Shown here in pieces: positions 6,226 to 57,030 of a stretch of DNA of 64,000 nt (position 1 is its first letter; every line of letters starts with the position of its first letter). Source of the DNA: Tubulanus polymorphus (taxonomy: Eukaryota; Animalia; Nemertea); the NCBI RefSeq assembly GCF_964204645.1, contig NC_134027.1:20298560-20362559 (forward strand). The letters are read 5' to 3'. The translations under genes and the position numbers were made by a program. The notes under the pieces were generated by a model, which was given only the letters and a program-made list of their open reading frames with translations, did no database searches and was not told where the DNA came from.

Positions 6226-7029
6226 GCTTAAGCCAGTTTCGGGTTCTTATTCTTCGAGATTTGAATATTTGAGGAGTTGAACTAAATTGAATTACTGTAT
6301 ATACTAATCTAACAATCGTGGAACTGGGTTTTCATTTACAATAGACTGAAAAATCCAAATCCATTCGTGAAACATTACGATATTCTAGAATCATTGTCTT
6401 TACTGTACGTAAACCTTGCATGGCCAGGCAGTACGATGGGGCTGCTCAATAAATCTGTAACAGCATCACGCGGCTAAATCTCTATTCAACAACTGGCCCA
6501 ATTGAGACTATAGTGGTGTAAAAGATATAAATGATTTGAGTGTTCAACTCAATTTTAAATTGTTTTCAAAAAGGGACCCGTCCCCACTCTTGTGGAATCA
6601 GGTTAGGCTGTGAGTTCACTTGAGACCTGCTGTTCCGTAGGTTTTGCATTCGGAACTACCCCATCTGATTTCCATAGACAGGTGGCTGCCCATAGGATTA
6701 AGTCGAAACATCAACTACACACTTAGTTTTTCTTCGTAATGGTGCGTTTTTCTTCAACTTATTCAGCTCCTGATGCGTTTATCAGAAAACTTCCGTCTGG
6801 GAACAGTTATAGTTTAACAACGCATAGTGTCTTGTGAGAATAGAATGAAATACGTGGTAAAAGATAAACGCTCTCTTATCTTGTGATAAACTTGCTCACG
6901 AAGAAGTAAGCATCGAAATGCTTATCGTTCTTCTTTTACCCTTACGTGCAAGATGAAAGCTTGGGTCTTGAAAGTGAAAACGTTTCCACTTCTAAAATGT
7001 AAAAAGTTATCTAGTATTATTATATTTAC

Positions 7030-9721
7030 CTTTTATTTCGACGCTATTGAAGCCTAGTTGATCTTCTGCCCATTTCACGTTTTTCCGATCGGCCAGGAAG
7101 CCTTGATGATAAATGTAGGATTTATTTTCAACAGATGCACCGGCACAAGTTGTGCTTTCAACCTGGTCGTCGTTATCCCATGTTGTACTCGAAATGACCC
7201 CGCCACCAGTAGCGGCCGCTGCTGCTAAGGGTTCCTTAGCGTTAATCACTTCTGGAATTTTACTTACATTCTTGGCTAAATCATTACTTGTACTATTAGA
7301 CGAGTCCGTTGTCTTACTGCCGGATAAACTGATGTGTGCATCTTCCGTAGTGCCTTCAAGTTGATGTATCTCCTTCATCTGGCATAATTGCAAATTTTCG
7401 GTATGATACGAACATTTGTCACCAACATTTTTAGCTTCGACGTTAGGTTGAACGGTATCACTCGTTGAGTGGTCATCGTCGTTACTTTTGTCTTTTTTTG
7501 TGCTTTCTTTGATAGCACATTCGTTTGTGACCGCATTATCATTCGAAACGTATGGATTTATAACCTTCCCAATCATTAAGTCTTTTGACTGATTTCCGTC
7601 ACTTAATTCCGACTTTTCAGCACTGTTTTCTACGAGTGCTGTTTTCTCGGCTATTTTGAGAGAGATTTCATTTGTGTCCAACTCAATTGGTTTTTCATTT
7701 CTGTAATCCTTAGGCTTAGCCTCAGTATATCCAGCAGAGTTGAAAACCTCTTGAGTATTTTCGCTAACTTCAATCGACTCTGTCAACTTTTTAGGAGATG
7801 ATATCCTCACCGCTGAAGGTGACTTGTCCGTGTCAAGTTGAATTGGTGTTTTCTTTTCATAAGCTATAGGGTTTACACCAGTCTCGTCTACTAAAACGAG
7901 GGCCTTTTCCCTCACAGGGTCACTTGATATGTCTTTCATCGGTTTACTAGATAATGAGGGTGACTTTTTTGGGTCTAACTGAATTGGCGTTTTCTTTTCA
8001 TTATCTTTCGGTGTTGTACTATTTGTTCTAAGGGTCTCGTCTACCGAAACATACGCTTCTTCTTTAGCTTGTAGCTCTTTCGTTTCTGTAGGAGGGGATT
8101 TTCTCCCTGTCGAAGGTGACTTGTCAGTGTCGATTGGAATTGACTTTGTCTTTCCACAATCTTCCTGTTTTGCGTCATTTATTTTTTTGGATTCATCCAC
8201 AAAAATGGAAGGCCTTTCCTTTGACACGTGAGTTGTATCCTTGATCGACGTTTTAGCACTTGAAGATGATGTGCCCGGGTCTAATTGAAATTGTTCGTTA
8301 GGACTCTCCACTTCATGGACAGGACCCTTTTCCCGTGTTGATGAAAGCGACTCTGGTGTATCCATTACACATTCAGACTTCGTTTGTGGACTATAATTCT
8401 CGGATTTGCCAGTTTCGAACTGTACCGGTTTTTTCTTGCCGTAAGCTCGTTGTTTTGGGCGCGGTTTTGGTGACCTATTTTCGCTTTCATTTATATCACT
8501 GTCAATAACAGCAGTGGAATTTAACACAGTGACTGGATTGTGGTTACAAACAAGCCTCGTTGGAAGTTGATCTGCACTATCCGTTTTGACGATCTCAACC
8601 GGTCGCTTGGCTTCAAAAACCTGGGCTGAATTATTTTGCACCTCAGAATTGACCCCAATTATCGAGGGTTTTGGTGAACTTTCAAGTACTGCACAGGCTG
8701 ATATTTTCTTAGGGTTGGCTTCCAGTTTATTTTCGGTTTGTTTTGAAGATTTGCTATCGTCGCCACCGCTTGCCTCTGATTTCGACTTCGTTTTATCCTT
8801 CCTGAATATATCTAAGAAACCCTTTTTATGCGACGTCTTCTCCGTTTTGATAACTTGATCGCTGAGCACAAGTTGAGCTTGCGGTTTCGACGTCGAATCC
8901 GAAGGCTGAGCGCTACCGATACAAATTGGCTTTTTCTTTTCATAAGCGCGTGGTTTGGCGGCCGACGAAACCGACACGTTCTCATCGCTTTTATCCGTCG
9001 TTATCGCCGACTCGACCGGCCGGTATTTGATTGCCGAAAACCTGATTTTCGGTGCCTGGAATTTCTGTGGTTTATCGTGAGACATTTTGTTGTCAGCTTT
9101 CAGTTCCGAGTTAGAATCGATAAATCGTGCCGACGAACCTGTGTTATTATCAGTCTCTGAACTATAATCCTTTGTTTTTAAAGGCGATATACGCGCTGAA
9201 TTATCGTTTACGTTAGATTCGGGGTTACTCACGATTGCAACCTCCTCACTTGAGACGTAATTAGAATCAGGTCTCACTCGTTGTAAGTTGGTAACACCCG
9301 TAAAATTAACTACAGGCGTTTTTGTGACCCTGACATTCGTTAAAAATTCGGAAGAAGGTGTAATAACTTCCGGTTTTACAACAACAACGGGTACCGCTGT
9401 TGCCATAGACGACGTTGGATGATCCGTAAGAACAGTAACGGGAACCTTTCTATGCCCAGTAGAATAATCCGAATCCGAAACGACGTTAACATTTGACCTC
9501 GAAGTGGTGACATCATCTGCCGAAGAATCGCCGACCTTGACCTTAATTTCTCTGAATTCGCCGCATGGTTTTTCGACGAATGATGATTCGAAACTATCGC
9601 ATGGTGGTGTTTGGTTGTCGCGTAAATTATCGATTGCAAGAATTGTCGTATCACATAATTTTTGAATTTCGTCGAATAAACTTTCACCTCCTGAGAACAA
9701 ATCCACTTCGAAATCGTCCAT
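7030..9721 (-). CDS. calmodulin-like gene, giant first coding exon (~897 aa, S/K/E/T-rich, disordered)
   Basis: 2.7-kb stop-free ORF ending at a phase-1 donor AAAG|GTAAAT at 7030. Spliced to 5343 it reads ...[24 protein letters not shown], paralleling calmodulin ADQLTEEQIAEFKEAF. Confidence 0.8.
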
Positions 9722-11232
9722 ATCGTTCCCGAACGAACCCGACTGGAAAGGAAAATAATCGTTCCATCAATTGACGTAGGAAAAACATTTACCAATATGA
9801 GTGCGAGTTATTTGCACGTAATAATCCGTGAATAGCACATGATAGCGCGATTGAAATTTGAACATTATGAAATTTTTTTATCCCACAAAGTTTTGGTTGT
9901 AGCACCTTACCACCTCAGGAGGTCCATTAGGTATGTGGCATCGATCAAATTCTATATTTTTTATTTTCAATGCAACGTATAAGTTGTGGGTTTTCGTTTC
10001 GTGTTAGTCCATATAAGGTTTGTTTAAATTACACCCATCAACGCTTTCTTCATATCTCATGTTGCTAATTCCAAATAGAAAAACCGATCATCGTACGTAG
10101 ATCAACTACGATATCGACGATTTTTATTTCATTTGATAATCCTGTTCAAGAACGACACGACTTATGACCATGTTGTGACAAGAATGAACGCATTTGATAA
10201 AGATTCCCACGATTTGATGTTCCGTATAATTTGAATCAATTTTCTAATTTCGAAAATTGGCACGAAAATTGTCATCATGGCGATGAAAATGGAATGTCAA
10301 CAACCAACAACGAACGATCTTTCGAAACATTTGATATTGAAGAGTGATTTGCTTTTATATTCCAAATTCTACCGTGAGAAGCAAGAGCTATACATGTGCA
10401 GGTATGCCTAGTCAAGCTCGAATCATGAATAATGCCTACTGGTTTCAACTTAAAAAGATACTGCGAAGTTATTGGTTCGACTGATGAAGTATACATTCAA
10501 ATCAGTCTGCACCGATTTACTTAGTTTACCTTGACCCATCATTTTTATTATCCCATCAACGCGTTCGATACCACCACCGACAATTTACCAGAGCTGTAGC
10601 GCCAGCTACGTCTACCTAACTTCTGTCGACAACCCTGAACTGAATGGCTGAACTAATCTGAAAAACGGGATTCTTTTTAATGAAGCTGTATACGTACCAT
10701 TATGACGCTTTGAATCTTGGCATGTTTTTCTTGCCGCTCTGTGTTCGTGTGGTATGCTTGGTTTATAAGTAAAGAGAACTGTTAGGTAGCAGTATACCGG
10801 TGGTTTACAAGCTGGGTGCTATTTAAGGATCAACTTGGAGGAGAATACTCATCTATATACTATCGCCGTACGCGCTCTGGTCTATTCTATGTAATAGACT
10901 TATTTATAAACATCATCAGACCGCCCGTGCTAATCACACCTTTAATTAGGGACGAACTCGGTGTAACGTTGACATCGTCAACAAAATATTTTCGTTGACA
11001 ATATTCATTCGTTCTATTATGTCGAAACGGCAAGAATTGTCAAGTTCAAGGAATGATAACAGCCTCAGAGTTCCCTTATCATATCGTAAATTGTCTGTAT
11101 ATGCAATCTTTACAATCCTAAAAGAAAATAGCTCTCTAATAATCACGGGCCAAGTCTCCCCCGTGTGATCGCAGCTGTGAAAAGGTCGAATTTTTGTAAG
11201 CGATTTGATTTTGTTATAGGTCATTGATTTTG

Positions 11233-15232: not shown

Positions 15233-17790
15233 TCAATCGAATGCCGCAGACGTTTCCAGTTCTTTGACGAATTCTTTGTGAGCTTTGTGAACCTCGTCCC
15301 AGAAATCCTGCATTCTTACTCTCGCCAACCACTCTTCCACTTTCGGCCACATTCTGAACTTGAACGTCGTCCATTTTAACTGAATTAATATAGTAGCTAC
15401 GTAACTGTCAGCGACGGTTAGTTCGCTACAACATAGATACTTTCTTTTCTCAAGGTATCGATTTTCGAGGACCTCTAGTAAACGAGAGAGTTCCCGGATG
15501 CCGGACTCGACCAGAGCCTCGTTTGCGGCATCCGACGGCAGACGATATCGGTCCAGGAATTGTGGGTAAGTATACCGGAAGCCAACGATTCTATTAATAA
15601 GAATGAGGAGATAATTGATTATCATTGTATCATGAAAAATACCAGGTAATTGTGTTTCACAGAAACTTTTAACATAATTATCATTAAACTTCCAACGGCT
15701 TAGTTATTACGGTGACAAACGAAACATCGGGTCTTCAAATCTTGAGATAAACGGAATCAAAAACACTCTAGCTATAAATCACTATACCTTAAGTGACTGT
15801 GAAGTTACATATTCATGCCTAACTCAAATATCTAATTCACATTTTACGACAGTGCACAACAAAGATTGTTATTTTCTCTATCCTATGATCCCAAAATATA
15901 TTGAAACCCTATCTGACATTTAAGCGAATCATTTGGTCATGTAGTCGATCTAAAGATCGTCCCTTTCTGTATCAAAAGCAGTTGGGTACCATTGGTACAG
16001 ACCTGTGCAGTTCTGAACATGCCCAACTGATTAACGATTCACATTTGTATCGTGTGACTTTATCCGGTCCGTAGCCATTGTAATTCGTGTACTCACATGC
16101 CAAATACCTCAAAATCGCCTGCCTGCAAAGGAATATGGGTATGCTCAAACAGGAATAACCGTTTCGAAAGTCCTAAATGCTTCGCGCATTATCCTATCTT
16201 TCTCAGCAACATCGAGTCTTCACATTGTTAATGTTTCAAAGCCAAAATCTACGGTTTTGTTTAAAAAAAAAAACAAAATTCCGCCCAACTATTATTTCAA
16301 ATATCTAAATAAGAAAATGATATCCATTCATTTTACATTTTTCACTGTGAATACTGATATTCTTATGAACGAATATTCGTCTTAGTGGACAAATACATTT
16401 ACGAAGGGATACGGGCTCAAGTATGAAATATGGAAAAGTAGTGGCCTTTTTACCTGACGTATCAATACGCACAATGCTGACCAAATATCTGCTAATCTTA
16501 ACATTCCCGACATACCGACAATCCGACATACCGGCACTCCCGACATACCGGCACACCCGACATACCGGCACACCCGACATACCGACATTCCCGACATGCC
16601 GGCAATCCGACATACCGGCAATCCGACATTCCGACACTCCCGACAAACCGGCACTCCGGCAATGCAGCAAACCTACATACAGACATTCTAGGCATTATTT
16701 AACCAGGCCAGTTGTTTTGGGAATATATATTTGTAAGACTGGGGCATTAGGTTCCTAATAATCCCCTGTAGAGAAATACCGGGATCGTGGGGCGTTTGTA
16801 TCCTAATATTCCCCTGTACAGAGTTGCTGGAATCGTGGGGCGTTCGGTTCCTAATATTCCCCTGTACAGAGGTGGTGGGATCGTGAGGCGTTTGATTCCT
16901 AATATTCCCCTGTACAGAGGTGCTGGGATCGTGGGGTGTTTGGTTCCTGATATTCCCCTGTACAGAGGTGCTGGGACCGTGGGGTGTTTGGTTCCTACTA
17001 TTCCCCTTGGATCGGTGGGCGTTCGGTTCTTGATATTTCCCTGTATAGAGGTGCCGGGATCGTGGGGCGTTCGGTTCCTAATAATCCCCTGTAGAGAGGT
17101 GCTGGGATCGTGGTATGTCAAAAGTCGGGTCGGATTGTCGGTATGTCGGGAGTGTCGGAATGTCGGGATTGCCGATGTTATAATTCAAATACAGAATTAT
17201 GTACCGAATCACTCATTCATTTTGTCTTAAGCTTCCGCAATGAGGGACTATATTACCATATCTTATACTTGATCCGGGATACGAACCCTTCAAACACGAC
17301 TATATCGCCGTCAACCAAAAGCGGTACTTCTCTGTGTGGGTACTGGTTAATGAATTCCAGTGTGGTGCCTTCTTTTTCAGAAAAATCCACATCGACTATT
17401 TTATGCGGGATGTTGTGCTGAAATAAAAACGTTAGGCTATATAAATCCAACTGTGGAAAATGATTACACAAGAAGCACCCTGCTATATAAGTAACAAAAA
17501 AGGTTGAATGCTGGTATCGATTTATAATGCACTCAAATCTATTTCATTTCTTCATTAATTCAATTGATGTTGCATCGCTATTCACGGACATTAATTTCTT
17601 TCAAAATTTGGACCCTTAAGCAGGAAGGTTTTCTTACCTGTAGTAAATACAGCCAAACAGCTCTGCACGGTGGGTAAATCCGTACCACGTACAGAGTAAC
17701 CGTCTCCTTCTCATTTTGCTCGCTTTCCTCCTCCTTAGTTCTCGTCTCTTCGGTACTGTTGGGGCGACATTTCGTGACAGCGTTTGCCAT
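15233..17790 (-). CDS. glutathione S-transferase, theta/delta-like, 4 exons (17790-17638, 17417-17287, 16122-16003, 15590-15233), 253 aa
   Basis: GT-AG exons with compatible phases total 762 nt. Motifs: PPCRAVWLYL, VPLLVDGD, EG|QAILRYLA, YLCCSELTVAD, WPKVEEWLARV. Confidence 0.9.
16500..17180. repeat. inverted (CCGACATA)-type arrays enclosing a 48-bp minisatellite (16750-17112)
   Basis: CCGACATAC/CCGGCA repeats at 16500-16690, their reverse complement at 17120-17180, and ~7.5 copies of TTCCTAATATTCCCCTGTACAGAGGTGCTGGGATCGTGGGG.. between them. Lies in GST intron 2. Confidence 0.85.
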
Positions 17791-18756: not shown

Positions 18757-19241
18757 GAATCGATTATGTATCAGTGGAATGTCGAAACTTAATTCGATTA
18801 ATGATACAAATTTGGTTTAAATTGAATATTTATCAGGCCTAAATCATATTTAGAAAATGCATTGCCCTAGTCTATAATAATATTTCGACTTAAATTTATT
18901 CGAAGCATTCGTAATACATAAATCACATTGATCAAAAATCTATGCACAAATCTACATCGACTTATTAAACGATTCGATTTTGAATTTTACCTGATTCCTT
19001 TTCTGCAATGATAAATGCTCAGCTCTTCACGGATTTCTTATAATGAAGGGTCGGTTCTAAGCCTCGCCGTCGGACCTTTTTTTTCTGCAGATTTTAACGA
19101 CATTAAAAGTTTTTTTCAAGCGTTGATTGGCCGCCAGCAAACTGTGGCATTGTTTGGCATTGGCATTGTTGTGAACTGGTACATCAACCGAGTCATCACC
19201 CTAATATGTAAGGTGTCGCGTGTAATCAGCTGTAGAATATG

Positions 19242-19583
19242 AGTAATAGGGATAATAGGCTTTCATACCAAAGGTCGAACGGTCGAGCTCATAAAAAATG
19301 AAAAACATGAAAATAATAACAATTTCTACTTGAATTAGTCGCGAAACTCATAAAAAATGAAAAATAATTCTCACACACTCGAATTTATTTTTCATTTTTA
19401 CTCGCTAGAAAAAAGTGTGAGTAAAGTGTGAGTGAAATAAATTCGAGTGTGTGAGAATTATTTTTCATTTTTTATGAGTTTCACTCCTAATTCAAGTAGA
19501 AATTGTTATTATTTTCATGTTTTTCATTTTTAATGAACTCGCCCCTTCAACCTTTGATATGAAAGCCTATTATCCCTATTACT
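19242..19583. repeat. 342-bp terminal palindrome (left end)
   Basis: 19242-~19392 is the imperfect reverse complement of ~19433-19583 and ends in CCCTATTACT. Confidence 0.95.
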
Positions 19584-19732
19584 CTTAAAATATTCATATA
19601 CATGAATAAAATATATATGAATAACATATAAATTGATAGATTATTCAATATAAAAGTGTGAGTGAAATAATTCATATTTAAAACATTGAATATTTATATT
19701 TGAATGAGTTTTAATACAAATTTTGTTATAAA

Positions 19733-20353
19733 ATGAAGAAAGAAGAAGAAGAACCCAACTTTAAAATCGAAATCAATGAAACCAATAAATAATTTTCACA
19801 GTTTTACATTAAAAATTATATTTCAGCAACAAATTTAGTGTCCGCAAGACATTATAAAATCGATAACATAACTATGATTAATCAAGTATTATCAAATGAA
19901 ACTTATTTAATTACTGAACTAGTAGATACTTTTGATAATGGTGTTAAAAATCCTAAAGTATTCAATACAGTTTTAAATTTTAAAGGAACTTTAGATGAAA
20001 ACATAATTAATATTCTTAAAACTCCTTTCAATGAAAGAAATAATGATATAATACTTTCAAAAGATTACAATGATTTGATTAACTTAAGAATTGAAAAAAG
20101 ACAATTATATTATTTCAATTTTGATAATAAACAAATTATCTATAACGAAAATTCATCAAATATTGGAATTCAATGTGAATTAGATAATGAAAAATCATTT
20201 AAAGATATAGCAGTTCAATGTAATTTAGATGATGAATTTAGAAAATTCAATCCTAATGAAAAAATTCATTGTTATTGCGGAGGTAAATATTCAAAATCAC
20301 ATAAATCAAAGCATTATGAAACAATTAAACATAAAAACTTGCGTAAAGAGTAA
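19733..20353 (+). CDS. arm ORF (left copy) with C-terminal CxC/H2 zinc-finger-like motif; one in-frame TAA at 19790
   Basis: ATG at 19733 (TATAAAATG) is in frame with the 171-aa ORF 19838-20353. C-terminus HCYCGGKYSKSHKSKHYETIKH. Confidence 0.6.
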
Positions 20354-20405
20354 CAATTCTACATTATAATTATTGAATTGAGTTAAATGATTTAAATATC
20401 TAATA

Positions 20406-21830
20406 GACTGTTAAAATGATAAATTGTTTGACAGTTGAAATGATAAATTGTTTGACAGTTGAAATGATAAATTGTTTGACAATTGAAATGATAAATTGTT
20501 TGACAGTTGAAATGATAAATTGTTTGACAGTTGAAATGATAAATTGTTTGACTGTTGAAATGTTAAATTGTTTGACTGTTGAAATGATAAATTGTTTGAC
20601 AGTTAAAATGATAAATTGTTTGACAGTTGAAATGATAAATTGCTTGACAGTTGAAATGATAAATTGTTTGCAAGTTGAAATGATATATTGTTTGACAGAT
20701 GAAATGTTAAATTGTTTGACAGTTGAAATGATAAATTGTTTGACAGTTGAAATGATAAATTGTTTGACAGTTGAAATGATAAATTGTTTGACAGTTGAAA
20801 TGATAAATTGTTTGACAGTTGAAATGATAAATTGTTTGACAGTTGAAATGATAAATTGTTTGACAGTTGAAATGATAAATTGTTTGACAGTTGAAATGAT
20901 AAATTGTTTGACAGTTGAAATGATAAATTGTTTGCAAGTTGAAATGATATATTGTTTGACAGATGAAATGTTAAATTGTTTGACAGTTGAAATGATAAAT
21001 TGTTTGACAGTTGAAATGATAAATTGTTTGACAGTTGAAATGATAAATTGTTTGACAGTTGAAATGATAAATTGTTTGACAGTTGAAATGATAAATTGTT
21101 TGACTGTTGAAATGTTAAATTGTTTGACTGTTGAAATGATAAATTGTTTGACAGTTGAAATGATAAATTGTTTGACAGCTGAAATGATAAATTGTTTGAT
21201 AGTTGAAATGATAAATTGTTTGACAGTTGAAATGATAAATTGTTCGACTGTTGAAATGATAAGACAGTTGAAATGATAAATTGTTTGACAGTTGAAATGA
21301 TAAATTGTTTGACAGTTGAAATGATAAATTGTTTGACAGTTGAAATGATAAATTGTTTGACAGTTGAAATGATAAATTGTTTGACAATTGAAATGATAAA
21401 TTGTTCGACTGTTGAAATGATAAGACAGTTGAAATGATAAATTGTTTGACAGTTGAAATGATAAATTGTTTGACAGTTGAAATGATAAATTGTTTGACAG
21501 TTGAAATGATAAATTGTTTGACAGTTGAAATGATAAATTGTTTGACAATTGAAATGATAAATTGTTTGATAGTTGAAATGATAAATTGTTTGACAGTTGA
21601 AATGATAAATTGTTCGACTGTTGAAATGATAAGACAGTTGAAATGATAAATTGTTTGACAGTTGAAATGATAAATTGCTTGACAGTTGAAATGATAAATT
21701 GTTTGACAGTTGAAATGATAAATTGTTTGGCAGTTGAAATGATAAATTGTTTGACAGTTGAAATGATAAATTGTTTGGCAGTTGAAATGATAAATTGTTT
21801 TACAGTTGAAATGTTAAATTGTTTGGCTGT
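20406..21830 (+). repeat. 24-bp satellite array, left arm (~59 units)
   Basis: Unit TGACAGTTGAAATGATAAATTGTT. Confidence 0.98.
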
Positions 21831-21948
21831 AAATTTAATTGTTATTTGATTTAATCATTTAAAAGTTTAATATTTAACAATGATGATAAAATATTTAATT
21901 AAAAACTAGCAAATATTTTATAAACTGTTTAATTTTTCTCTTAAATAA

Positions 21949-22167
21949 ATGGATGGTTTCATCCAAACTGGGAAAAGTGATTTGAAACATTATTTAGTAG
22001 CAGGTGGATTAATATTGGCCGCGCTTTTCTTTTATTATGAAAATATCAGTAAGGATTTGATTAATGAAAATATAAAATTGAGCAAGAAATTAAAGAAGTT
22101 AAATGGAAACAATCACAGGAAGTATAACAATAAAAAATTTAACGATTTAAATGATTTGGAGGATTAA
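21949..22167 (+). CDS. 72-aa core ORF with a hydrophobic (TM-like) segment and a basic coiled-coil-like tail
   Basis: TAAATAAATG start; YLVAGGLILAALFFYY. Confidence 0.5.
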   Translation: MDGFIQTGKSDLKHYLVAGGLILAALFFYYENISKDLINENIKLSKKLKKLNGNNHRKYNNKKFNDLNDLED

Positions 22168-22213
22168 AACAGCATCTTTTAATTTAATTTATTCTATATA
22201 TTTTGACTATAAA

Positions 22214-22519
22214 ATGAGTGAAAATAAGGTATTAGAAATATTACATCTAATATATAAAAATCAACAGAATATTAAATCAATTATTATGCTTACAGGTTTA
22301 TTTTCATTCTCAGTTTATACTATAAAACAGTTGTTAGAATTCTATGATTGCTGTAAAATTAGATACACTGAATTAATAGAAAATATGAATTATATTTCAG
22401 ATAGATTGAATAATATTAAATGCTGTGAAATATGTAATAAAAGATATACAAATTTAAAGAGTTTAAAAACTCATAAATATGTTCATGAACTTGATGAAAA
22501 ATTATATGATTCAAAATAA
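22214..22519 (+). CDS. 101-aa core ORF with a hydrophobic segment and a C2H2 zinc finger
   Basis: TATAAAATG start; IIMLTGLFSFSVYTI; CEICNKRYTNLKSLKTHKYVH. Confidence 0.6.
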   Translation: MSENKVLEILHLIYKNQQNIKSIIMLTGLFSFSVYTIKQLLEFYDCCKIRYTELIENMNYISDRLNNIKCCEICNKRYTNLKSLKTHKYVHELDEKLYDSK

Positions 22520-22623
22520 GAAATCGACTGTTAAATTAGCTGAAAATATAAAATATATTAGTTGAAATGTATGAAAATGAGTAAATTATATTTACGTTAA
22601 AAAAGGAGGGTTGAGGTGTCAAT

Positions 22624-22732
22624 GTATTAAATACGTATTAAATACGTATCAAATACGTATTAATGGTATTAAATACGTATCAAATACGTATTAATGGTAT
22701 TAAATACGTATTGATGGTATTAAATACATATT
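22624..22732. repeat. short tandem repeat of GTATTAAATAC-type units in the element core
   Basis: Direct observation. Confidence 0.8.
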
Positions 22733-22969
22733 ATGCTTTATTTCCGAAAATGAAGTAACAGAAGTAATTTATGTTTTAATTCATTCAAGTATGATATTGT
22801 AAATTCTTTACATTTGACTAGGATAATACAAGAGTGATATTAGTTAGTTGGCTTATTCAATAAGAGAAACAATGAAATAATACAAGAGTGATACTAACAG
22901 TTAAAGTTATTGAATTTCTTGTTAAATCTATTTGAATTCTAGTAAATTCTTGTTAACCAATAGCGCGAC

Positions 22970-25074
22970 AACTGTCAAACAATTTATCATTTCAACTGTC
23001 AAACAATTTATCATTTCAACTGTCAAACAATTTATCATTTCAACTGTCAAACAATTTATCATTTCAACAGTCGAACGATTTATCATTTCAACTGTCAAAC
23101 AATTTATCATTTCAACTGTCAAACAATTTATCATTTCAACTGTCAAACAATTTATCATTTCAACTGTCAAACAATTTATCATTTCAACTGTCTTATCATT
23201 TCAACTGTCAAACAATTTATCATTTCAACAGTTGAACAATTTATCATTTCAACTGTCAAACAATTTATCATTTCAACAGTCGACAATTTATCATTTCAAC
23301 TGTCAAACAATTTATCATTTCAACAGTCGAACGATTTATCATTTCAACTGTCAAACAATTTATCATTTCAACTGTCAAACAATTTATCATTTCAACTGTC
23401 AAACAATTTATCATTTCAACTGTCAAACAATTTATCATTTCAACTGTCTTATCATTTCAACTGTCAAACAATTTATCATTTCAACAGTTGAACAATTTAT
23501 CATTTCAACTGTCAAACAATTTATCATTTCAACAGTCGACAATTTATCATTTCAACTGTCAAACAATTTATCATTTCAACTGTCAAACAATTTATCATTT
23601 CAACTCTCAAACAATTTATCATTTCAACAGTCGAACAATTTATCATTTCAACTGTCAAACAATTTATCATTTCAACTGTCAAACAATTTATCATTTCAAC
23701 TGTCAAACAATTTATCATTTCAACTGTCTTATCATTTCAACTGTCAAACAATTTATCATTTCAACAGTCGAACAATTTATCATTTCAACTGTCAAACAAT
23801 TTATCATTTCAACAGTCGACAATTTATCATTTCAACTGTCAAACAATTTATCATTTCAACTGTCAAACAATTTATCATTTCAACTCTCAAACAATTTATC
23901 ATTTCAACAGTCGAACAATTTATCATTTCAACTGTCAAACAATTTATCATTTCAACTGTCAAACAATTTATCATTTCAACTGTCAAACAATTTATCATTT
24001 CAACTGTCTTATCATTTCAACCGTCAAACAATTTATCATTTCAACAGTCGAACAATTTATCATTTCAACTGTCGAACAATTTATCATTTCAACAGTCGAA
24101 CAATTTATCATTTCAACTGTCAAACAATTTATCATTTCAACTGTCAAACAATTTATCATTTCAACTGTCAAACAATTTATCATTTCAACAGTCGAACAAT
24201 TTATCATTTCAACCGTCAAACAATTTATCATTTCAACAGTCGAACAATTTATCATTTCAACTGTCGAACAATTTATCATTTCAACAGTCGAACAATTTAT
24301 CATTTCAACTGTCAAACAATTTATCATTTCAACTGTCAAACAATTTATCATTTCAACTGTCAAACAATTTATCATTTCAACAGTCGAACAATTTATCATT
24401 TCAACTGTCAAACAATTTATCATTTCAACTGTCAAACAATTTATCATTTTAACTGTCAAACAATTTATCATTTCAACAGTCAAACAATTTAACATTTCAA
24501 CAGTCAAACAATTTATCATTTCAGCTGTCTTATCATTTCAACTGTCAAACAATTTAACATTTCAACTGTCAAACAATTTATCATTTCAACTGTCAAACAA
24601 TTTATCATTTCAACTGTCAAACAATTTATCATTTCAACTGTCAAACAATTTATCATTTCAACTGTCAAACAATTTATCATTTCAACTGTCAAACAATTTA
24701 TCATTTAAACTGTCAAACAATTTATCATTTCAACTGTCAAACAATTTATCATTTCAACTGTCAAACAATGTATCATTTCAACTTGCAAACAATTTATCAT
24801 TTCAACTGTCAAACAATTTATCATTTCAACTGTCAAACAATTTATCATTTTAACTGTCAAACAATTTATCATTTCAACAGTCAAACAATTTAACATTTCA
24901 ACAGTCAAACAATTTATCATTTCAACTGTCAAACAATTTATCATTTCAACTGTCAAACAATTTATCATTTCAACTGTCAAACAATTTATCATTTCAATTG
25001 TCAAACAATTTATCATTTCAACGGTCAAACAATTTATCATTTCAACTGTCAAACAATTTATCATTTTAACAGTC
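22970..25074 (-). repeat. 24-bp satellite array, right arm (~87 units, inverted)
   Basis: Reverse complement of the left array, with higher-order blocks marked by 15-bp truncated units. Confidence 0.98.
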
Positions 25075-25126
25075 TATTAGATATTTAAATCATTTAACTC
25101 AATTCAATAATTATAATGTAGAATTG

Positions 25127-25747
25127 TTACTCTTTACGCCAGTTTTTATGTTTAATTGTTTCATAATGCTTTGATTTATGTGATTTTGAATATTTACCTC
25201 CGCAATAACAATGAATTTTTTCATTAGGATTGAATTTTCTAAATTCATCATCTAAATTACATTGAACTGCAATATCTTTAAATGATTTTTCATTATCCAA
25301 TTCACATTGAATTCCAATATTTGATGAATTTTCGTTATAGATAATTTGTTTATTATCAAAATTGAAATAATATAATTGTCTTTTTTCAATTCTTAAGTTA
25401 ATCAAATCATTGTAATCTTTTGAAAGTATTATATCATTATTTCTTTCATTGAAAGGAGTTTTAAGAATATTAATTATGTTTTCATCTAAAGTTCCTTTAA
25501 AATTTAAAACTGTATTGAATACTTTAGGATTTTTAACACCATTATCAAAAGTATCTACTAGTTCAGTAATTAAATAAGTTTCATTTGATAATACTTGATT
25601 AATCATAGTTATGTTATCGATTTTATAATGTCTTGCGGACACTAAATTTGTTGCTGAAATATAATTTTTAATGTAAAACTGTGAAAATTATTTATTGGTT
25701 TCATTGATTTCGATTATAAAGTTGGGTTCTTCTTCTTCTTTCTTCAT
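25127..25747 (-). CDS. arm ORF (right copy), inverted duplicate of 19733-20353
   Basis: Same protein except L>W near the C-terminus and K>I in the short pre-stop segment. Same in-frame TAA. Confidence 0.6.
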
Positions 25748-25897
25748 TTTTATAACAAAATTTGTATTAAAACTCATTCAAATATAAATATTCAATGTTT
25801 TAAATATGAATTATTTCACTCACACTTTTATATTGAATAATCTATCAATTTATATGTTATTCATATATATTTTATTCATGTATATGAATATTTTAAG

Positions 25898-26239
25898 AGT
25901 AATAGGGATAATAGGCTTTCATATCAAAGGTTGAAGGGGCGAGTTCATTAAAAATGAAAAACATGAAAATAATAACAATTTCTACTTGAATTAGGAGTGA
26001 AACTCATAAAAAATGAAAAATAATTCTCACACACTCGAATTTATTTCACTCACACTTTACTCACACTTTTTTCTAGCGAGTAAAAATGAAAAATAAATTC
26101 GAGTGTGTGAGAATTATTTTTCATTTTTTATGAGTTTCGCGACTAATTCAAGTAGAAATTGTTATTATTTTCATGTTTTTCATTTTTTATGAGCTCGACC
26201 GTTCGACCTTTGGTATGAAAGCCTATTATCCCTATTACT
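25898..26239. repeat. 342-bp terminal palindrome (right end)
   Basis: Reverse complement of 19242-19583. Confidence 0.95.
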
Positions 26240-27379
26240 AATATGGATCCCCAATCAAGGATCTATTTTCATGGAACTTCTTTTAGTTCCATATTATTAC
26301 GTATTTATGTTTCAGCTCGCGCATTAATTCCTCAATTTACTCCAAACATATCTCTACACGTTGCACTATAATTCCGTATATCGGACTTGGGCCCACTAGG
26401 TAAATTTAATTGGGACTCAAAACGAACGAATGAAGTATTGTGACAACTTTCCCAACGATGAATTAAGGTTAACTATGTGAATGATGTTGTTTCTTATTCA
26501 GATATCAACCTGGGAGCGGACCGGTATGACGATAAATAGAAGTCAACAAAAGAGAGACAATGCTTGATTTACATATCTTTCAACACGATTGATCATATTT
26601 GATTGGCTTGATCAATACTGTATATATTATATGTAATGTGCACAGGCAATCAAAAGTCATAAGTCAGCACTTCAGCATCTTTTCCTGAATCCGAAGACGA
26701 GTTCCCGGCAATATATATTTGCAATTGTACTAAGCAAATTATTTTGAAAGAAACAACCACTTTTAAACTTGACTGGTAACTGAAAATACACAATTGACGG
26801 CAATAGAATGTGTCAGTAGAAATTTCCTGTGATGACAGGCTAGTGAGCCCTAAAAGTACACAACAGTAATAGAGGGATAATTTGCAAGGGAACGGATATT
26901 TTTCTTTTCGTGGAAACGAAATAATGCAACGTTTATCGAGGGAGCGAAGTGTGTTTCGTTCGAACGAAATAACGAAAAGTTACCCAAATTGCCAACATTT
27001 TGAAATGTCCAAATATGGGGATTGCAAAAAAGTATTCATTTTCACCATGTCACCTCCGGGGCTCCGTTTAAAGGCGTTTCACTTAAAATGAAATTCATGC
27101 GCGATGGTAGCGATGTACACTTCTGGGAAGCAATGTCAGAGAAAAATTTGTGTTTGACAATCCGATAATCAGAACAGAACCAATGTCGAGGAATAGTGGA
27201 TCTTCCTTGCTGTGATTGCAGCTTTCATGAGTTTTCGTTACGATTCATTTAAACAATTCAGACATGTAAAGATACTGAGTAAGTACTTTTATGTACGCTG
27301 TATAGCTCTAATATTTGTTCCCGGAATAGCTAAACGTTGTATAACTCGTATCAACATTTTAGGCCTACTGCACAGATAC

Positions 27380-47763: not shown

Positions 47764-50700
47764 TTAACTACTACATGTATCAGACAGCACGTTAGCCCAT
47801 CTACTGATGTTATTTCTAGCCTCGGCAGCTGCCTTTCTCGTCGAACGACGTGTGACGGGTGCAGAATTTACGTTTGAGTCCGGTTTGCACGTGTTCGAGG
47901 GATCTGCGGCGCGCACTTCAAGAGGGTAGAGTTTGCTAGTTGGTCGATTAGTCCTGCCATTCGAAATTTTGATCTTAGCGGTTCTAACTAAGCCGTCGTT
48001 CCCCGGAACGAGTTCCTCGACCAGTGCTAGTTTCCATTTCAGACGCGAATTATGATTGTCGTCGTGTACTAACACGACATCACCCTTTCTGATGGTATTT
48101 CCAGTTAATCCGCGATTTTTAAATTGGATGTGTCTTTCGCGTAGGGCTGTTACGTATTCCTCAGCCCAACGTTTCCACAGATGTTGTTTTAATGAACCGA
48201 TTCGCACCGAACGTTTTTCAAATTCTGACGGCATATTTCCAAGCGTCGGGTCGGTCAGTTCATCGTAACTTACGAACAGATGCGGTAAACTCGTGAGAAC
48301 GCGACCGTGAAGGAAATGTGACGGGGTTAAAGGTTCTGGGTCGTCCACATCAGATGAACAGTACGATATCGGGCGATTATTTACAGCTTGTTCAGTCTCT
48401 GATACGATCGTAATCAATTCCAGCAGGGATAGTCGCGCACGCCCCAGAACTTTTTTGATCGCGGTTTTTGTTATTCCAACTAGCCTTTCGTAAAATCCAC
48501 CAAACCAGGGGCTCGACGAGTTATCATGACCCACTCTGATCGGTGTAGGCTGAAGTACTTTCGGGTTTCGATCGATTCGTATATCTTTTTGATAGCATTG
48601 TTACTCGCAATAAAGGTTGATTGGTTGTCCGATATTATTTTCTGTGGTAACGAACGTCTGGCAGCCATTCTCCTCAACGCGTGTAGGAATGTTGACGTAG
48701 TCATGTCCGTTACCACTTCCAGATGGATGGCACGCGTGTTCGCGCAAGTAAACAAGCATATATACGCGAGTGACTCCTCCCCGGATTTCGACCGAAGATG
48801 TAGTGCACCGGTGAAATCTAAACCACAGACGGTGAAGGGTGGAGCCTCTTTCAAACGCGAAGATTGTAACGGAGCGCAGTTTGGTAACGAGTACGGTTTA
48901 CCGGTGATATATTTGCATATGACGCATTTTCTCAACAACTTCCGAGCCACTTGACGAACACGAGTAATCCAATACTTTTGTCGGACTACGGTTATAGTAG
49001 ATTCTGTACCGAGGTGTTTGACCTTATTATGGGAATCCAGTACGATTAATTCACTATATCTACAATGAGGTAACAATATCGGAAACTTTGCATCGTATCC
49101 GATGGGCGCGTTATGGAGACGGCCTCCAACACGAATGATATCATCTTCTAAAAACAAACGAAGTTTCTTTACAAGTGATGGCCTTTTCTTAGATTTATGT
49201 TCTAAACTAACTTTCACGTCATTGAAGTAACTCGATTGAACACCTTTGTTCCATAGATCTTCGCATTCTGCTATTTCGTTAGCAGTTATTTCATCCGATT
49301 CATGGTTTTCGCGTCTTGACTTTTTAATAAATCGTCGAACTAGCGCGGTTACGCGTAATAGCCTTGTTAACGAAGTGAAATCGTTCTGATCTATTACGTT
49401 ACATATTCCGACTTCGTTGTTTTCGCAGATTTTTTCGTCAGGCTGTTTGTCCTCGTCCATTTCGGTTATGAGCAAAACTGCTCGATCGATCGTGTCGCAG
49501 GTGGGATAATTACCGTTGCTAAGCCAGCTAGGGCCATTCCACCAGAGCGTGCATCGCGTAATTTGTTCGCACGATATTCCTCTGCTTAACATATCAGCCG
49601 GATTGTCACTCGTCGGACAATATTTATAGCGACCGATAGTTGTCACCGATTTAATTTGACGCACGCGATTAGCTACGAAGACGGGAAGCTTTTTCTCGGA
49701 GTTGATCCAGTGTAACACAATCTGGCTATCTGACCAGAGCACGCACTTTGTTATGACTATTTCAGTAATCAGACTGTTTCGAACGTAATCTGTTAATTTA
49801 GCACCAATCAACGCGGCCATTAATTCTAACTGCGGTATCGTATGTTTTTTAACAGGTGCCACACGCGATTTAGACATGACGAGTACCGTCTGATCTCCAC
49901 GTTTTAGATAGACGCAAGCGCCGTATGCCAATTGGCTCGCATCGCAGAAAGTGTGCAATTCGTACTTAGCTTCCGATTTCGCTTCCGATTTCGAGTAGCG
50001 TCGATCAACGCGTATTTCGCTAATTTCACGCAATTCCGTTATCAACGAGATCCACGATTCGACTACGCGCTCGGGTAGGGTTTCGTCCCACTCATAACCT
50101 TCCGTCCACAACTGCTGTACGAACATCTTCGACTTAATATGGACAGGCGAGACGTATCCTAACGGGTCATAAAGGCTCGAGACAGCCTTAACGATTTCGC
50201 GTTTGGTAATCAAGTCAGGATTGGCGAACGCTTGTTTGTTTTTGAATGACAGCGTATCATTCACCGTATCCCATTGGAGTCCGAGCGCAGAAACAATAGT
50301 TTTCTCGTCCGATAAATTATCGGAATCTGCTTTGGCCTTTAGTAACGAAGAGTTAGAAGCATAAGACTGAAGTTTAAATCCGCCGTTTTTCATTATGCTA
50401 TTGATATTCGTATAGTATTTCATGAGATCGCTCTCAGATTCACATCCACTAATCGCGTTGTCGACATATATATTTTTAACTAAGTCACGTGATACATGGT
50501 TATTATAATTATTTAGATGAAAACGAACAGTAGCATTCAATATAAAGGGTGAACTCACCACGCCGAACAATATAACCTTGAAGCGATAGGTTTTGAGTTC
50601 ACTTTCTGGATTCTTAGGATCAGTCAACCATAGAAATTTCGTATACTCGCGATCATCATCGTGCAGACCAACTTGAAGAAACGCCTTTTCGATATCCGCC

Positions 50701-51791
50701 GACAATCCGAATTTATGCAACCTGAATCTGATCAGGATTGAACCGAGGTCATTCAGCAGCGTCGGACCGGTCTCCAAACAATCATTTAAACTAGGGTTTC
50801 CCGCGGTCGATAAAGACGCGTTATAGACGATACGGATAGGGGTTGTTGACGATTCCTTCTTGACCGCGCGATGCGGTAAATAATGACCTATGTTTCGGTC
50901 ATCATCTGTGACTTCTTCGATGAAGTCTCGCGATAATTGATCCATGATAATGTTGTGGTAAACATTTCGAATTTGCGGCGATAGCCGACGAATCATCGAT
51001 TGTGTTATGTTTCGAGTAACATAGTAATTTGTCGGAAGGGGGGCGTGTCCACTCTTCCACGGCAACTTCGCAGTATACCGTCCCGTGTCGGATGTCGTCA
51101 GGCTTGATTGACAGTAGTCGAGTAGATTGAATTCTTTTGAAGCCGCATCTGTTGCATCAGTTACGCCTATGGATTCGAGATCCCAGAATTTTTGGAGGTT
51201 GACTTCCTCCGAACGATGTGACGTAACATCCACGTTGTAAACTCGTGCAGTATTTATTGGATCGCAATCACTAAACGGTCCAGAGAGAAGATACCCTAAT
51301 TTCGAAGATACTGCCGTGGGTCCATTTCCGCGGATTGTGTGGTTACCGACCACTGACCAATAGAAATCGGCACCGATTAAAATGTCGATTTCGAAGTGTG
51401 ATTCGGTAGAAAACGGATGCGCTAATTTCAAACCTGTCAGATACGGTAAATCTTTGATAGATCTGCCGGTTTGGTTTCGCATTGTCGACGCAATTTGTGG
51501 AACAATTAACGCCGTTATCGGTATGTCGGTTTCATCAGAACATAGTGTAAAGTTCGCAACAATCAGTGACCGCGCACTTGATTGTTTCGCGCCAAATGTG
51601 TTGATCGATATAGTTTCGGTTTCTTCACTGTTTATATATAATCTTTCGGCTGTTCTTTGAGTAATAAAACTCCGCTGAGCGCCCTCGTCGAACAAGATGT
51701 TTACGTTAGTCGTTACGCCTTCGCGACTTTTTGCGTTCGCGATAGCTGTTTTTAATAACACTGTTCCATCGGCGGCGCCCAGATACTGATG
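47764..51791 (-). CDS. BEL pol (protease, RT, RNase H, integrase), with a 1-nt frameshift at ~48510
   Basis: LFDEGAQRSF, YLPHRAV, SADIEKAFLQV, YVDN, FCDAS, GLDFTG, SDN; RAP|WFGGFYERLVG is broken in a C4 run. Confidence 0.93.
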
Positions 51792-53045
51792 TCAATCCCT
51801 GTCAGCTTTCTCATCGGTTGATTTTGCGGCCACAGGTGTGGTTGATTTTGCATCTAAATGAACTGATGTGTGATGCTTTTTGCCACAGTTTGTAACTCTG
51901 CATCTGTTTTTCGATAAGCATTTCGTCGATTTGTGACCGCTCGAGAGACAATTAAAGCATAAATTATCCCTAGCAACAATTTCTCTGCGTTTTTCAGCAT
52001 CTGGAAACGTTTTACAGTCCACCGCAACGTGATTGATCTTTTTGCAGAACGCACATTTTCGATCGTTTTCCCGTGAAAAATTATGTCTGTTTTTCGCCGT
52101 AACTGCGAACGCTCCCACGGTCGGCGAATTGGCGGGAAAATCATCCTCTATCGTAAGGCTTTCGATACTAGCCTCGAAGGCCTCAATTTCTTTAAGGAGT
52201 GACTTTCTTAGATCAGTCAGGCTCCAAGCATTGTTACCGTGGTCTCTGGTAATCTGTTGTTTAGTTCCGCTCGGTAGTTTTTCCATTATGATGGGTACTA
52301 ACAGATCTCCGTACGATTCTTCGGATTTTCCGAGTGAATTTAATCCACGAATATAAGATTCCAGAGAGTCATAGAAATTCCGTAGTGAGTTGTCGCGATC
52401 ACTCGGTGGTGAAAGCTCCCACAACGCTTTCATGTATGCGGCCACAATTTTGTGTGGTGTCCCGTACCGGTTTAACAAAAGTTCCAAAGCTTGATTATAA
52501 TTTTCGTTTGTTAAACTCAGGTTTTCGATCGTTTTTGCAGCGTCGCCCTTTAGCTGTGCGGACAGATATTGGAACTTTTGGATATTCGTTAAGTTCTCAT
52601 CACTATCAACTGCCGAGAAAAATCCATCGAAGAACGTTTGCCATTTCAGAATATCGCCATCGAATGTTGGCAAAGATAACTTCGGCAACTGGATCGGTCT
52701 TTTCGCAGTTTTTTGATGCTCGGATTTCATGCGCGTTGTCGGTTCGATTTGATTCTTTTTCCGTTCGAGGTATCCGATGAAGGTTGATAGTTCGATGTTT
52801 ATTTCGTTCATATAATCATCGGTTTCACATACGAGGTCTTCGAGTTTCCCTAACTCTGCGTTCGCAATCAGTTCCGAATCATATCCTGCGATAACTTCCA
52901 ATTTTGTACGTATTCTAGTTATGACGCCAGACAATTTGTCTAGGCTTTCGTCACTTTCCGAATGAAGTAAATCCCTCGCCTGATCAAAAAGTTTCGTCAT
53001 CTGTCGAATTTGCGCATTTCGCATTATCTCTTCTTTCGACGGCAT
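51792..53045 (-). CDS. BEL gag
   Basis: LPKLSLPTFDG, KFQYL, and three Cys/His knuckles (CAFC..H..C, CFNC..H..C, C...C..HH...H). Confidence 0.93.
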   Translation of the reverse strand: MPSKEEIMRNAQIRQMTKLFDQARDLLHSESDESLDKLSGVITRIRTKLEVIAGYDSELIANAELGKLEDLVCETDDYMNEINIELSTFIGYLERKKNQIEPTTRMKSEHQKTAKRPIQLPKLSLPTFDGDILKWQTFFDGFFSAVDSDENLTNIQKFQYLSAQLKGDAAKTIENLSLTNENYNQALELLLNRYGTPHKIVAAYMKALWELSPPSDRDNSLRNFYDSLESYIRGLNSLGKSEESYGDLLVPIIMEKLPSGTKQQITRDHGNNAWSLTDLRKSLLKEIEAFEASIESLTIEDDFPANSPTVGAFAVTAKNRHNFSRENDRKCAFCKKINHVAVDCKTFPDAEKRREIVARDNLCFNCLSSGHKSTKCLSKNRCRVTNCGKKHHTSVHLDAKSTTPVAAKSTDEKADRD

Positions 53046-53077
53046 CTTGGCTGAGTTTCTGAATTTACTGCTTGTAT

Positions 53078-53095
53078 ATCCTGGTCACGGCACCA
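53078..53095 (-). promoter_or_regulatory. primer binding site, tRNA-His-like
   Basis: TGGTGCCGTGACCAGGAT, 3 nt inside the 5' LTR boundary. Confidence 0.8.
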
Positions 53096-55800: not shown

Positions 55801-56650
55801 AATTTGTATTTACACGAGTGAATGTGAAATTTGGACAGCTGTCAATGTCCGTAGTACAGAATTAAGTCCTGTAGTGTCAGTTACTAGGACTGCTGGAAAT
55901 CAATTGATAATAGTTTTTCATAAGGAACCGCTCCTGCTCGAATCTTTGTTGTATACGAGTCCAAATACGCAGAGCTAGCTTTGACCACTTGATTGAATTG
56001 GATTTCTGGTTTATATAGGCTTGATATGCTGAATTTCGTATTACCGCAGAATCTGCCGTAGAAACCTTCACAAATGACACAGAAAGTTTGTTAGGATCAA
56101 CACTTAAGAGACAGTTGGTGTCACCTCGGGTACTTATTTGATGGTTTTCACAGAGCTATGAAAAAACCACAGCTTTACCAGTCCGCCTTATCAAGCCCAA
56201 ACCCAAAACAAGTTTTGACGTGATTACTGTACGTACAAGGTGATATGGTATGCTGGGCGACTAGAAGACCGGTCGACTGGATGACTGGTTGACTGGATGT
56301 CTTGACGACTGGTCGACCGAGTGACTGGATGACTGGGTGACTGGCCGACTGGATCACTGGATGACATTACCATCATGCCTATCTCCACTATCTTCACAAT
56401 CACCTTGCTCGGCATCACCATTACCACTACCATCCCCATCACCTTCTCCAGCATCTCCGCCATCAACACTGTCGTCTCCACCATTTACACAATCACCTTC
56501 TGAAACATCACATAACAATTATCTATCACGACCATCACTATCATCATCTCCACCGTTTCCACCATATGCACCATCACAATCTCCACCATCTGCAACATCA
56601 CCTTCTCCAATCGGCACCACAGCCGCGCCGCCACTGCCATCAACATCACA

Positions 56651-56788
56651 GTCATCGCCCTGTAGGGTGTCGCCTGTCATCGCTTGCTATAGAAGATGGA
56701 TCCCCAATCAAGTATCTATTTTTGTTCATGGAATTTCGTTTAGTTCCATATAGCTACGCTTTTATATTTCAGCTTGCCCATTAATTCC
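56651..56788 (+). repeat. uninterrupted paralog of the sequence split by the 19242-26239 element
   Basis: Aligns by eye to 19192-19241 joined to 26246-26331 (TAGAA[G/T]ATG|GATCCCCAATCAAG). Confidence 0.85.
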
Positions 56789-57030
56789 CCGGAAATTGAA
56801 TCTACACATTACACTATTCTCACTACGTGGCGCTGCGGACAGACGGAAGAATCAGGTTGGCTTTGGTTTTCCTCGCTGTCGTTCGTGCTTGTGCGGTTGT
56901 GGTGGTTCACAGCTTGGCTTTGTGCTGTGACCATGTACTTCTGTTGAACTGTGTGTCCTCTTTTGTGCAGTCTGTCGTCCGGGGTATTCCACTGTGTGTG
57001 GAATAAGGGGTAGTCCACTGTGTGTGGTCA

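Follow-up and report, generated by a model that had tools for sequence, protein, structure and literature searches.

A 7-kb element with doubled, hairpin-forming termini in an animal genome and the possible use of its 3'-end palindrome as a primer

RESULTS

Layout and boundaries of the element

The window, that is, the whole 64-kb stretch of DNA analyzed, was found to contain a 7-kb insertion whose outer ends have the tips AGT..ACT. Its features and those of its neighborhood are collected in Table 1. Terminal inverted repeats (TIRs) of about 2.6 and 3.3 kb enclose a unique center of 1.1 kb, and the unique parts of the left and right TIRs differ at 5 positions in about 1.18 kb. The giant size of these TIRs suggests that this copy arose via copy-back from one end. 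The 24-bp arrays that they contain are unequal in length (60 versus 89 copies), and long frames of an 8-aa repeat run through them, since one strand of the 24-bp unit is free of stops in a single frame and the other strand in all three.

Table 1. Features of the element and its surroundings in the window
Feature	Position	Strand	Remarks
Left target site duplication (TSD), AATATG	19236..19241	.	6 bp; from sequence and empty sites
Whole element	19242..26239	.	6998 bp, A+T-rich, mostly one fold-back
Left hairpin, outer arm	19242..19390	+	149 nt, AGT tip; two 18-nt units 59 bp apart
Left hairpin, loop	19391..19434	.	44 nt, weakly self-complementary
Left hairpin, inner arm	19435..19583	-	9 mismatches to outer arm; terminal 26 nt identical
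Body-side junction sequence	19584..19609	+	Common to relatives that diverge in the interior at 19609 or 19632
159-aa intronless ORF, left TIR	19874..20353	+	C-terminal zinc-finger-like motif also in unnamed metagenomic proteins
24-bp tandem array, left TIR	20406..21825	+	About 60 copies
72-aa ORF, unique center	21949..22167	+	Hydrophobic stretch, no Pfam match
122-aa ORF, unique center	22151..22519	+	Weak C2H2 zinc finger, below Pfam cutoff
24-bp tandem array, inverted partner of left array	22969..25074	-	About 89 copies
Mirror copy of 159-aa ORF, right TIR	25127..25606	-
Right hairpin	25898..26239	-	342 nt; exact reverse complement of left hairpin
Right TSD, AATATG	26240..26245	.	6 bp; from sequence
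919-aa open frame	7007..9766	-	Rich in S, K, E, and T; no Pfam or PHROGs match
Glutathione S-transferase C-terminal domain fragment	15233..15703	-
Pao/BEL LTR retrotransposon	47764..53084	-	gag-/pol-like frames: DUF1759, RT, Peptidase_A17, rve, DUF5641

Sequencing data were taken from four runs carrying one species label. Three of these (X1, X2, and X3) are contig sets of one study, and X4 consists of raw reads from another study; the raw-read evidence is that of this one run, of which about 12 in 100 was read. The ends of the element and its TSD were deduced to be exact, since 51 X4 reads and one X1 contig represent the empty site, passing from 19241 directly into the right flank, and since the target repeat has an unbroken paralogue at about 56640-56790 of the same window. 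The insertion target itself (19190-19241 plus 26240-26331) belongs to another repeat family and has an X4 depth of about 75, compared with a flank mean near 10. Among the neighboring features, the 919-aa frame is probably a large disordered host exon, and the Pao/BEL retrotransposon points to an animal as the probable host.

Structure of the terminal hairpins

Each end of the element is a 342-nt palindrome made up of 149-bp arms with 9 mismatches and a 44-nt loop. An initial annotation of this DNA had noted that a terminal motif occurs four times, and this was confirmed: two copies of the 26-nt motif start at 19242 and 25898, and two inverted ones have their ends at 19583 and 26239. No further copy is present in the window; 0.12 copies were expected in shuffled sequences, none of 100 shuffles reaching four. 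The roughly ten differences in about 150 bp that the same annotation had estimated between the stems of one hairpin correspond to the 9 mismatches counted in 149 nt, and the TSD does, as it had stated, adjoin the outer hairpin ends only and not the inner ones. Its remark that the left and right hairpins look identical holds when they are compared as reverse complements (342/342) and does not hold for direct copies, which agree at 93-94%. The folding z-score of the hairpin was -30.9, with none of 100 shuffles as good. The divergence between the arms (9/149) was greater than that between the left and right TIRs (5/about 1.18 kb; p=3e-6). The absence of mismatches from the terminal 26 bp of the arms was not significant (p=0.17) and was dropped as evidence.

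The hairpin is real in the reads, 177 of which (X4) cross from arm through loop to arm, and an X1 contig reads across the left host junction and matches it without any difference; an assembly artifact was ruled out by these two observations. An 18-nt motif at the border of loop and inner arm (19423-19440) recurs exactly at 19653-19670, 70 bp inside the body, and the read depth peaks there; this motif is a candidate protein-binding site. The outer arm also contains a 6-bp palindrome (19339-19344), which is located at one of the mismatch clusters and is the turning point of a short hairpin form seen in the reads.

The arm mismatches were found to be biased by strand. All eight that contain a G (4 G.T, 3 G.A, and 1 G.G) have it on the strand that terminates 3' at the tip (sign test, p=0.008; by clusters, 6/6, p=0.03), and in all eight the stabler pair is formed on this strand. 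The 3'-tip strand folds at -148.4 kcal/mol versus -139.7 kcal/mol for the other strand, i.e., 8.7 kcal/mol better. Either selection for a stable 3' fold-back or single-strand-specific damage would give such a bias; the test was post hoc and concerns one hairpin, and a mutation bias could be responsible instead.

Cargo ORFs and search for core genes

Nine weak matches were obtained for the 159-aa ORF, all to proteins that are unnamed or "hypothetical" and all confined to its last 30-45 residues. A GIY-YIG domain is present in three of the nine proteins matching this zinc-finger motif. Motifs of the zinc-finger/GIY-YIG type are common in giant viruses and Polinton-like viruses (PLVs). Protein searches, which covered near lengths only, gave no homologues for either of the two zinc-finger ORFs, and no related viral loci were found. 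The best Atlas score was 0.87, with low recognition, and was taken as a lead only; PHROGs matches at E values of 0.03-0.07 were disregarded. A short ATG frame is present upstream of the 159-aa ORF (19733-19876), and the ATG of the ORF itself differs in 148 of 327 X4 reads; its start is therefore uncertain.

No integrase, polymerase, or capsid gene was observed among the ORFs of the element, nor was any other member of the Polinton/Maverick core set (pPolB, RVE integrase, ATPase, protease, and capsid), and no Rep/HUH nuclease or resolvase gene lies within it. The absence of core genes would be expected for a non-autonomous copy. A scan of viral contigs for the terminal and junction motifs gave no matches. 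Of the 19 metagenome loci and 7 viral loci from the motif scans, none was similar beyond the motif or had a fitting inverted copy at hairpin length, and the viral and metagenome scans yielded no autonomous partner having these ends together with core genes.

The doubled terminus in the reads

To the segment comprising loop, inner arm, and body (19391-20400), 6844 X4 reads were aligned at 88% likeness. The read tables contributed their best rows, namely, at 88%, 24 of 458 rows for loose ends and 15 of 89 for joints and, from an alignment at 95%, 12 of 97 rows for loose ends. Just past the inner tip, at 19601, the X4 depth was 1272. A further 518 reads left at 19583 into unrelated sequence (agreement, 0.36), which, with three cutoffs assumed, converts to a depth of about 700-940. 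Inner hairpin-body junctions were at least as common in X4 as host junctions, and the loop depth (327) was close to the body depth (313-376). An excess of host junctions over inner junctions, as solo mini-elements or relatives with simple ends would produce, was thus absent. The X1 unitig depths were 2237 for the loop, 2415 for the body, and 32 for the flank; such depths, which are not copy numbers, hint at some tens of elements, and the copy number calculated from the X4 flank depth was unreliable (1.3-20x).

Relatives of the element were found to diverge from it with high agreement at 19609 (287 reads) and 19632 (204 reads) while keeping the junction (best 24 of 458 rows), from which it was deduced that several interiors share the inner junction. 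The hairpin itself varies. The short form, which turns at 19482/19487, was present in 127 X4 reads versus 177 for the long form in the 88% alignment and in 87 versus 83 reads in the 95% alignment, and it was also present in the contigs of X1, X2, and X3. Arms without one 59-bp unit were represented by 40 and 36 reads in the listed rows of the 95% alignment. Since the arm depth (1270-2050) exceeded twice the body depth, over half of the arm reads are deduced to come from subfamilies not separated here. The palindrome was found throughout the family at the level of reads, not copy by copy. The doubled terminus is a family trait and not a local accident, and we place high confidence in both its structure and its family status, which are well supported. 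The possibility, named in the initial annotation, that the inner copy is unique to this locus and not conserved fails against reads in which the inner junction is family-wide.

Polarity of the arms

Outer-arm alleles were carried by 43-67% of X4 arm reads at the five listed of the nine mismatch sites, and arm asymmetry is therefore common in the family. For polarity, 1613 X4 reads were aligned at 95% to the flank, outer arm, and loop, the arm alleles being those of unphased reads. At this threshold, reads that begin at the tip and carry inner alleles are retained on the outer arm for an aligned length of no more than 34 bases. The 300 outer-allele reads that left at 19242 did so with an agreement of 0.35. 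Simulated agreement was 0.32 for host flanks only, 0.36 with 10% body-side reads, and 0.65 for a 50:50 flip. In the simulation with 10% body-side reads the consensus already read as body. Of 30 places in the consensus printed for the X4 reads, 7 agreed with the body side (by eye). Clipping of body-side reads might occur one base further outward; no such row was among the six listed for X4, the smallest of which had 51 reads.

No mixture of flip and flop isomers was thus detected. Assuming that the rows were ranked by count, flipped ends amount to at most about 15%, a bound that is indirect and is not zero. The read data favor a fixed polarity in which outer-arm alleles join host DNA. The left and right ends of this element have the same arm polarity.

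DISCUSSION

Proposed mechanism

We hypothesize that the 7-kb element is a non-autonomous element of the Polinton/PLV type whose 3'-end palindrome serves as a fold-back primer for copying, an assignment that we consider evenly balanced; the self-priming mechanism taken alone is rated at about the same even level. A single strand of the element would be released, and its 3' outer arm would fold onto the inner arm and prime synthesis through the body. Folding would pair both copies of the terminal motif with each other, giving one duplex ending in ACT-3'. A trans-acting retrovirus-type integrase would nick the primer strand at the arm/body junction, freeing the same 3' end again. Joining of this end to host DNA, at a stagger of 6 bp, would be followed by repair that copies through the hairpin and so restores the palindrome. 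Because the nick would be on the primer strand, the outer arm would stay outer, with no flip, and the stem mismatches would be inherited and not erased. Self-priming with reopening of the primer strand would explain the palindrome that reaches the tip, the inherited mismatches, the fixed polarity, the strand bias, and the conserved inner junction, and an integrase with a 6-bp stagger would account for the TSD. The tip AGTAAT was counted for self-priming, as jumping-back protein priming is linked to an (AGT)2 repeat, which this tip is not. Since neither core genes nor an autonomous partner were found, the proposed Polinton/PLV origin rests on the tips, the length of the TSD, and the viral-looking small ORFs. 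The element was observed in neither a free nor a hairpin-closed form.

A broader proposal, which is offered tentatively and is on balance doubtful, is that an animal lineage of virus-like elements mobilized by an integrase swapped protein priming for hairpin self-priming without flip-flop. The doubled terminus would then be the required duplex site of the integrase, with a single nick both reopening the primer hairpin and making the integrating 3' end.

Alternative explanations

The fixed polarity and the inherited mismatches would be equally expected if an ancestor had gained the inner copy once, either by fold-back copying of an end or from a mini-element nested in the TIR, and if the palindrome had then persisted as a passenger of a normal protein-primed Polinton system, in which the outer tips alone are recognized. 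This inherited accident, which we deem rather unlikely, would be consistent with the short hairpin form, as it turns at the 6-bp palindrome (19339) in the outer arm like products of template switching, and accidental annealing is named as an alternative in the accessible portion of the Halocafeteria preprint (bioRxiv 10.64898/2026.07.28.741278). A passive duplex palindrome offers no reason for the strand bias of the mismatches (8/8). Long palindromes are unstable, and subfamilies differing in interior and in hairpin length all keep a palindrome that reaches the tip together with the same inner junction. The initial annotation had also suggested a composite of free 342-bp mini-elements, in which the unit would be an active MITE and two inverted copies would mobilize the DNA between them. 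The unit is indeed built like a MITE, with TIRs of 149 bp on either side of 44 bp, and the TSD is found at the outer ends only, as such a composite would have it; however, the reads contain no excess of loops or of host junctions, the loop depth equaling the body depth in both X4 and X1 and host junctions not outnumbering inner ones. No solo 342-bp copy is present in the 64-kb window, the read depth leaving room for a few elsewhere, and the flank of the inner tip is conserved over at least 26 nt in relatives. An active composite was thus disfavored and is very improbable.

Self-priming or resolution telomeres had been proposed as well. While the former survives in the mechanism set out above, resolution of the flip/flop kind is disfavored in that outer-arm alleles join host DNA. 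Telomeres of the parvovirus or poxvirus type would yield flip and flop through opposite-strand nicks or concatemer junctions or, with asymmetric resolution like that at the left end of MVM, would keep one orientation. Such asymmetric resolution with a flip-only left end is described in the accessible text of PMC1185569 and would be compatible with the polarity taken alone. The homotelomeric parvoviruses, as presented in the available part of PMC12297876, show the same layout of a terminal palindrome enclosed in a perfect ITR of greater length. No flipped ends were present in the listed rows among the 300 outer-allele junction reads, the two ends of this element share one polarity, the element has no Rep/HUH or resolvase gene, and its clean 6-bp TSD points to an integrase; this explanation is accordingly given a very low probability. 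Hardly more probable is an origin that is not viral, namely, a non-autonomous transposon of the foldback type that an unknown DDE transposase would move by cut-and-paste and for which the palindrome would supply extra transposase sites. This would be consistent with TIRs of 2.6-3.3 kb that contain 24-bp arrays and are longer than the TIRs of vertebrate Mavericks (46-1447 bp), and directly after the inner tip come C and TTAA, an arrangement reminiscent of Sola3 ends. Sola3 elements have a TTAA TSD with GAG..CTC tips. The tips in use here are, in contrast, AGT..ACT with a 6-bp duplication other than TTAA, and reads either leave at 19583 or pass 19601, with none among the best 24 of 458 rows leaving after TTAA. 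The cargo ORFs, moreover, are intronless and A+T-rich, and the zinc-finger motif is accompanied by GIY-YIG in three of nine matches. Identity with Sola3 was ruled out, the outer ends having AATATG without the right-hand C.

Significance

The coupling of replication to integration in Polinton-like elements is an open question. The removal of the terminal protein before integration of such elements is called unclear in the accessible part of PMC11161782, and wider characterization of terminal palindromes is called for in the available text of the Halocafeteria preprint (bioRxiv 10.64898/2026.07.28.741278). Long imperfect hairpins with mismatches that mark the arms, present in a multi-copy family of a probable animal host, constitute natural markers by which self-priming without flip can be told apart from resolution of the parvovirus type and from passive inheritance. 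If the self-priming mechanism fails, a warning for annotation stands: such ends resemble composite MITEs but are one terminus.

Comparison with known systems

Foldback-type DNA transposons (Galileo and FB) have very long TIRs with internal tandem arrays and are mostly non-coding; to our knowledge, AG..CT tips, a 6-bp TSD, and terminal palindromes are not among their features. The present element is like them in its very long TIRs and internal tandem arrays and unlike them in its tips, TSD, and terminal palindromes.

Vertebrate Mavericks are described, in the accessible part of PMC8097293, as having a 6-bp TSD, TIRs of 46-1447 bp, and tips of (AGT)2 or (AG)3 that are linked to jumping-back protein priming. 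On this basis, the element shares with vertebrate Mavericks/Polintons the 6-bp TSD, the AGT..ACT tips, and the possession of TIRs, and it differs in the length of the latter (2.6-3.3 kb, longer than the vertebrate range), in having no core genes, and in its doubled terminus, a terminal palindrome not being mentioned for vertebrate Mavericks in that part of the source. The Polinton/Maverick end motif, (AGT)2//(ACT)2 or (AG)3//(CT)3, was not found, the ends being AGTAAT//ATTACT, one mismatch from (AGT)2. Because of this tip, the longer TIRs, and the absence of core genes, the element was not filed as a proven Maverick despite its TSD. In the literature covered, to which most subscription papers and the Repbase entries did not belong, no description of long terminal palindromes in animal Polintons was found; the accessible portions of PMC11296320, PMC11161782, PMC6431247, PMC5199201, and 10.64898/2026.10.13.758929 likewise contain no such termini for animal Polintons.

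The homotelomeric parvoviruses, as exemplified by Bemisia tabaci ambidensovirus in the available part of PMC12297876, also carry at each end a perfect ITR that is longer than the terminal hairpin it includes. Unlike them, the present element is integrated with a 6-bp TSD, has no Rep or capsid gene, and gave no detectable flip/flop mixture.

The closest features were those of Halocafeteria seosinensis, in which palindromes lie next to TSDs in endogenous virophages (subtypes 1, 2, 5, and 6) and in the PLV of subtype 4, according to the accessible text of the preprint (bioRxiv 10.64898/2026.07.28.741278). There, the palindromes go with replication genes other than pPolB and with RVE integrases, and a self-priming model is proposed for them. 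As in those elements, the palindrome of the present one is part of the TIR and adjoins the TSD, here at both ends. The Halocafeteria palindrome is 52 nt in subtype 5 and belongs to complete protist elements, whereas that described here is 342 nt, imperfect, and part of a non-autonomous element in a probable animal host. Terminal palindromes beside TSDs were thus known already from the Halocafeteria preprint. Read evidence on polarity, solo copies, and strand bias, which the available text does not address for the Halocafeteria elements, is provided here, and the family-wide fixed polarity and the strand bias are the additions made by the present analysis.
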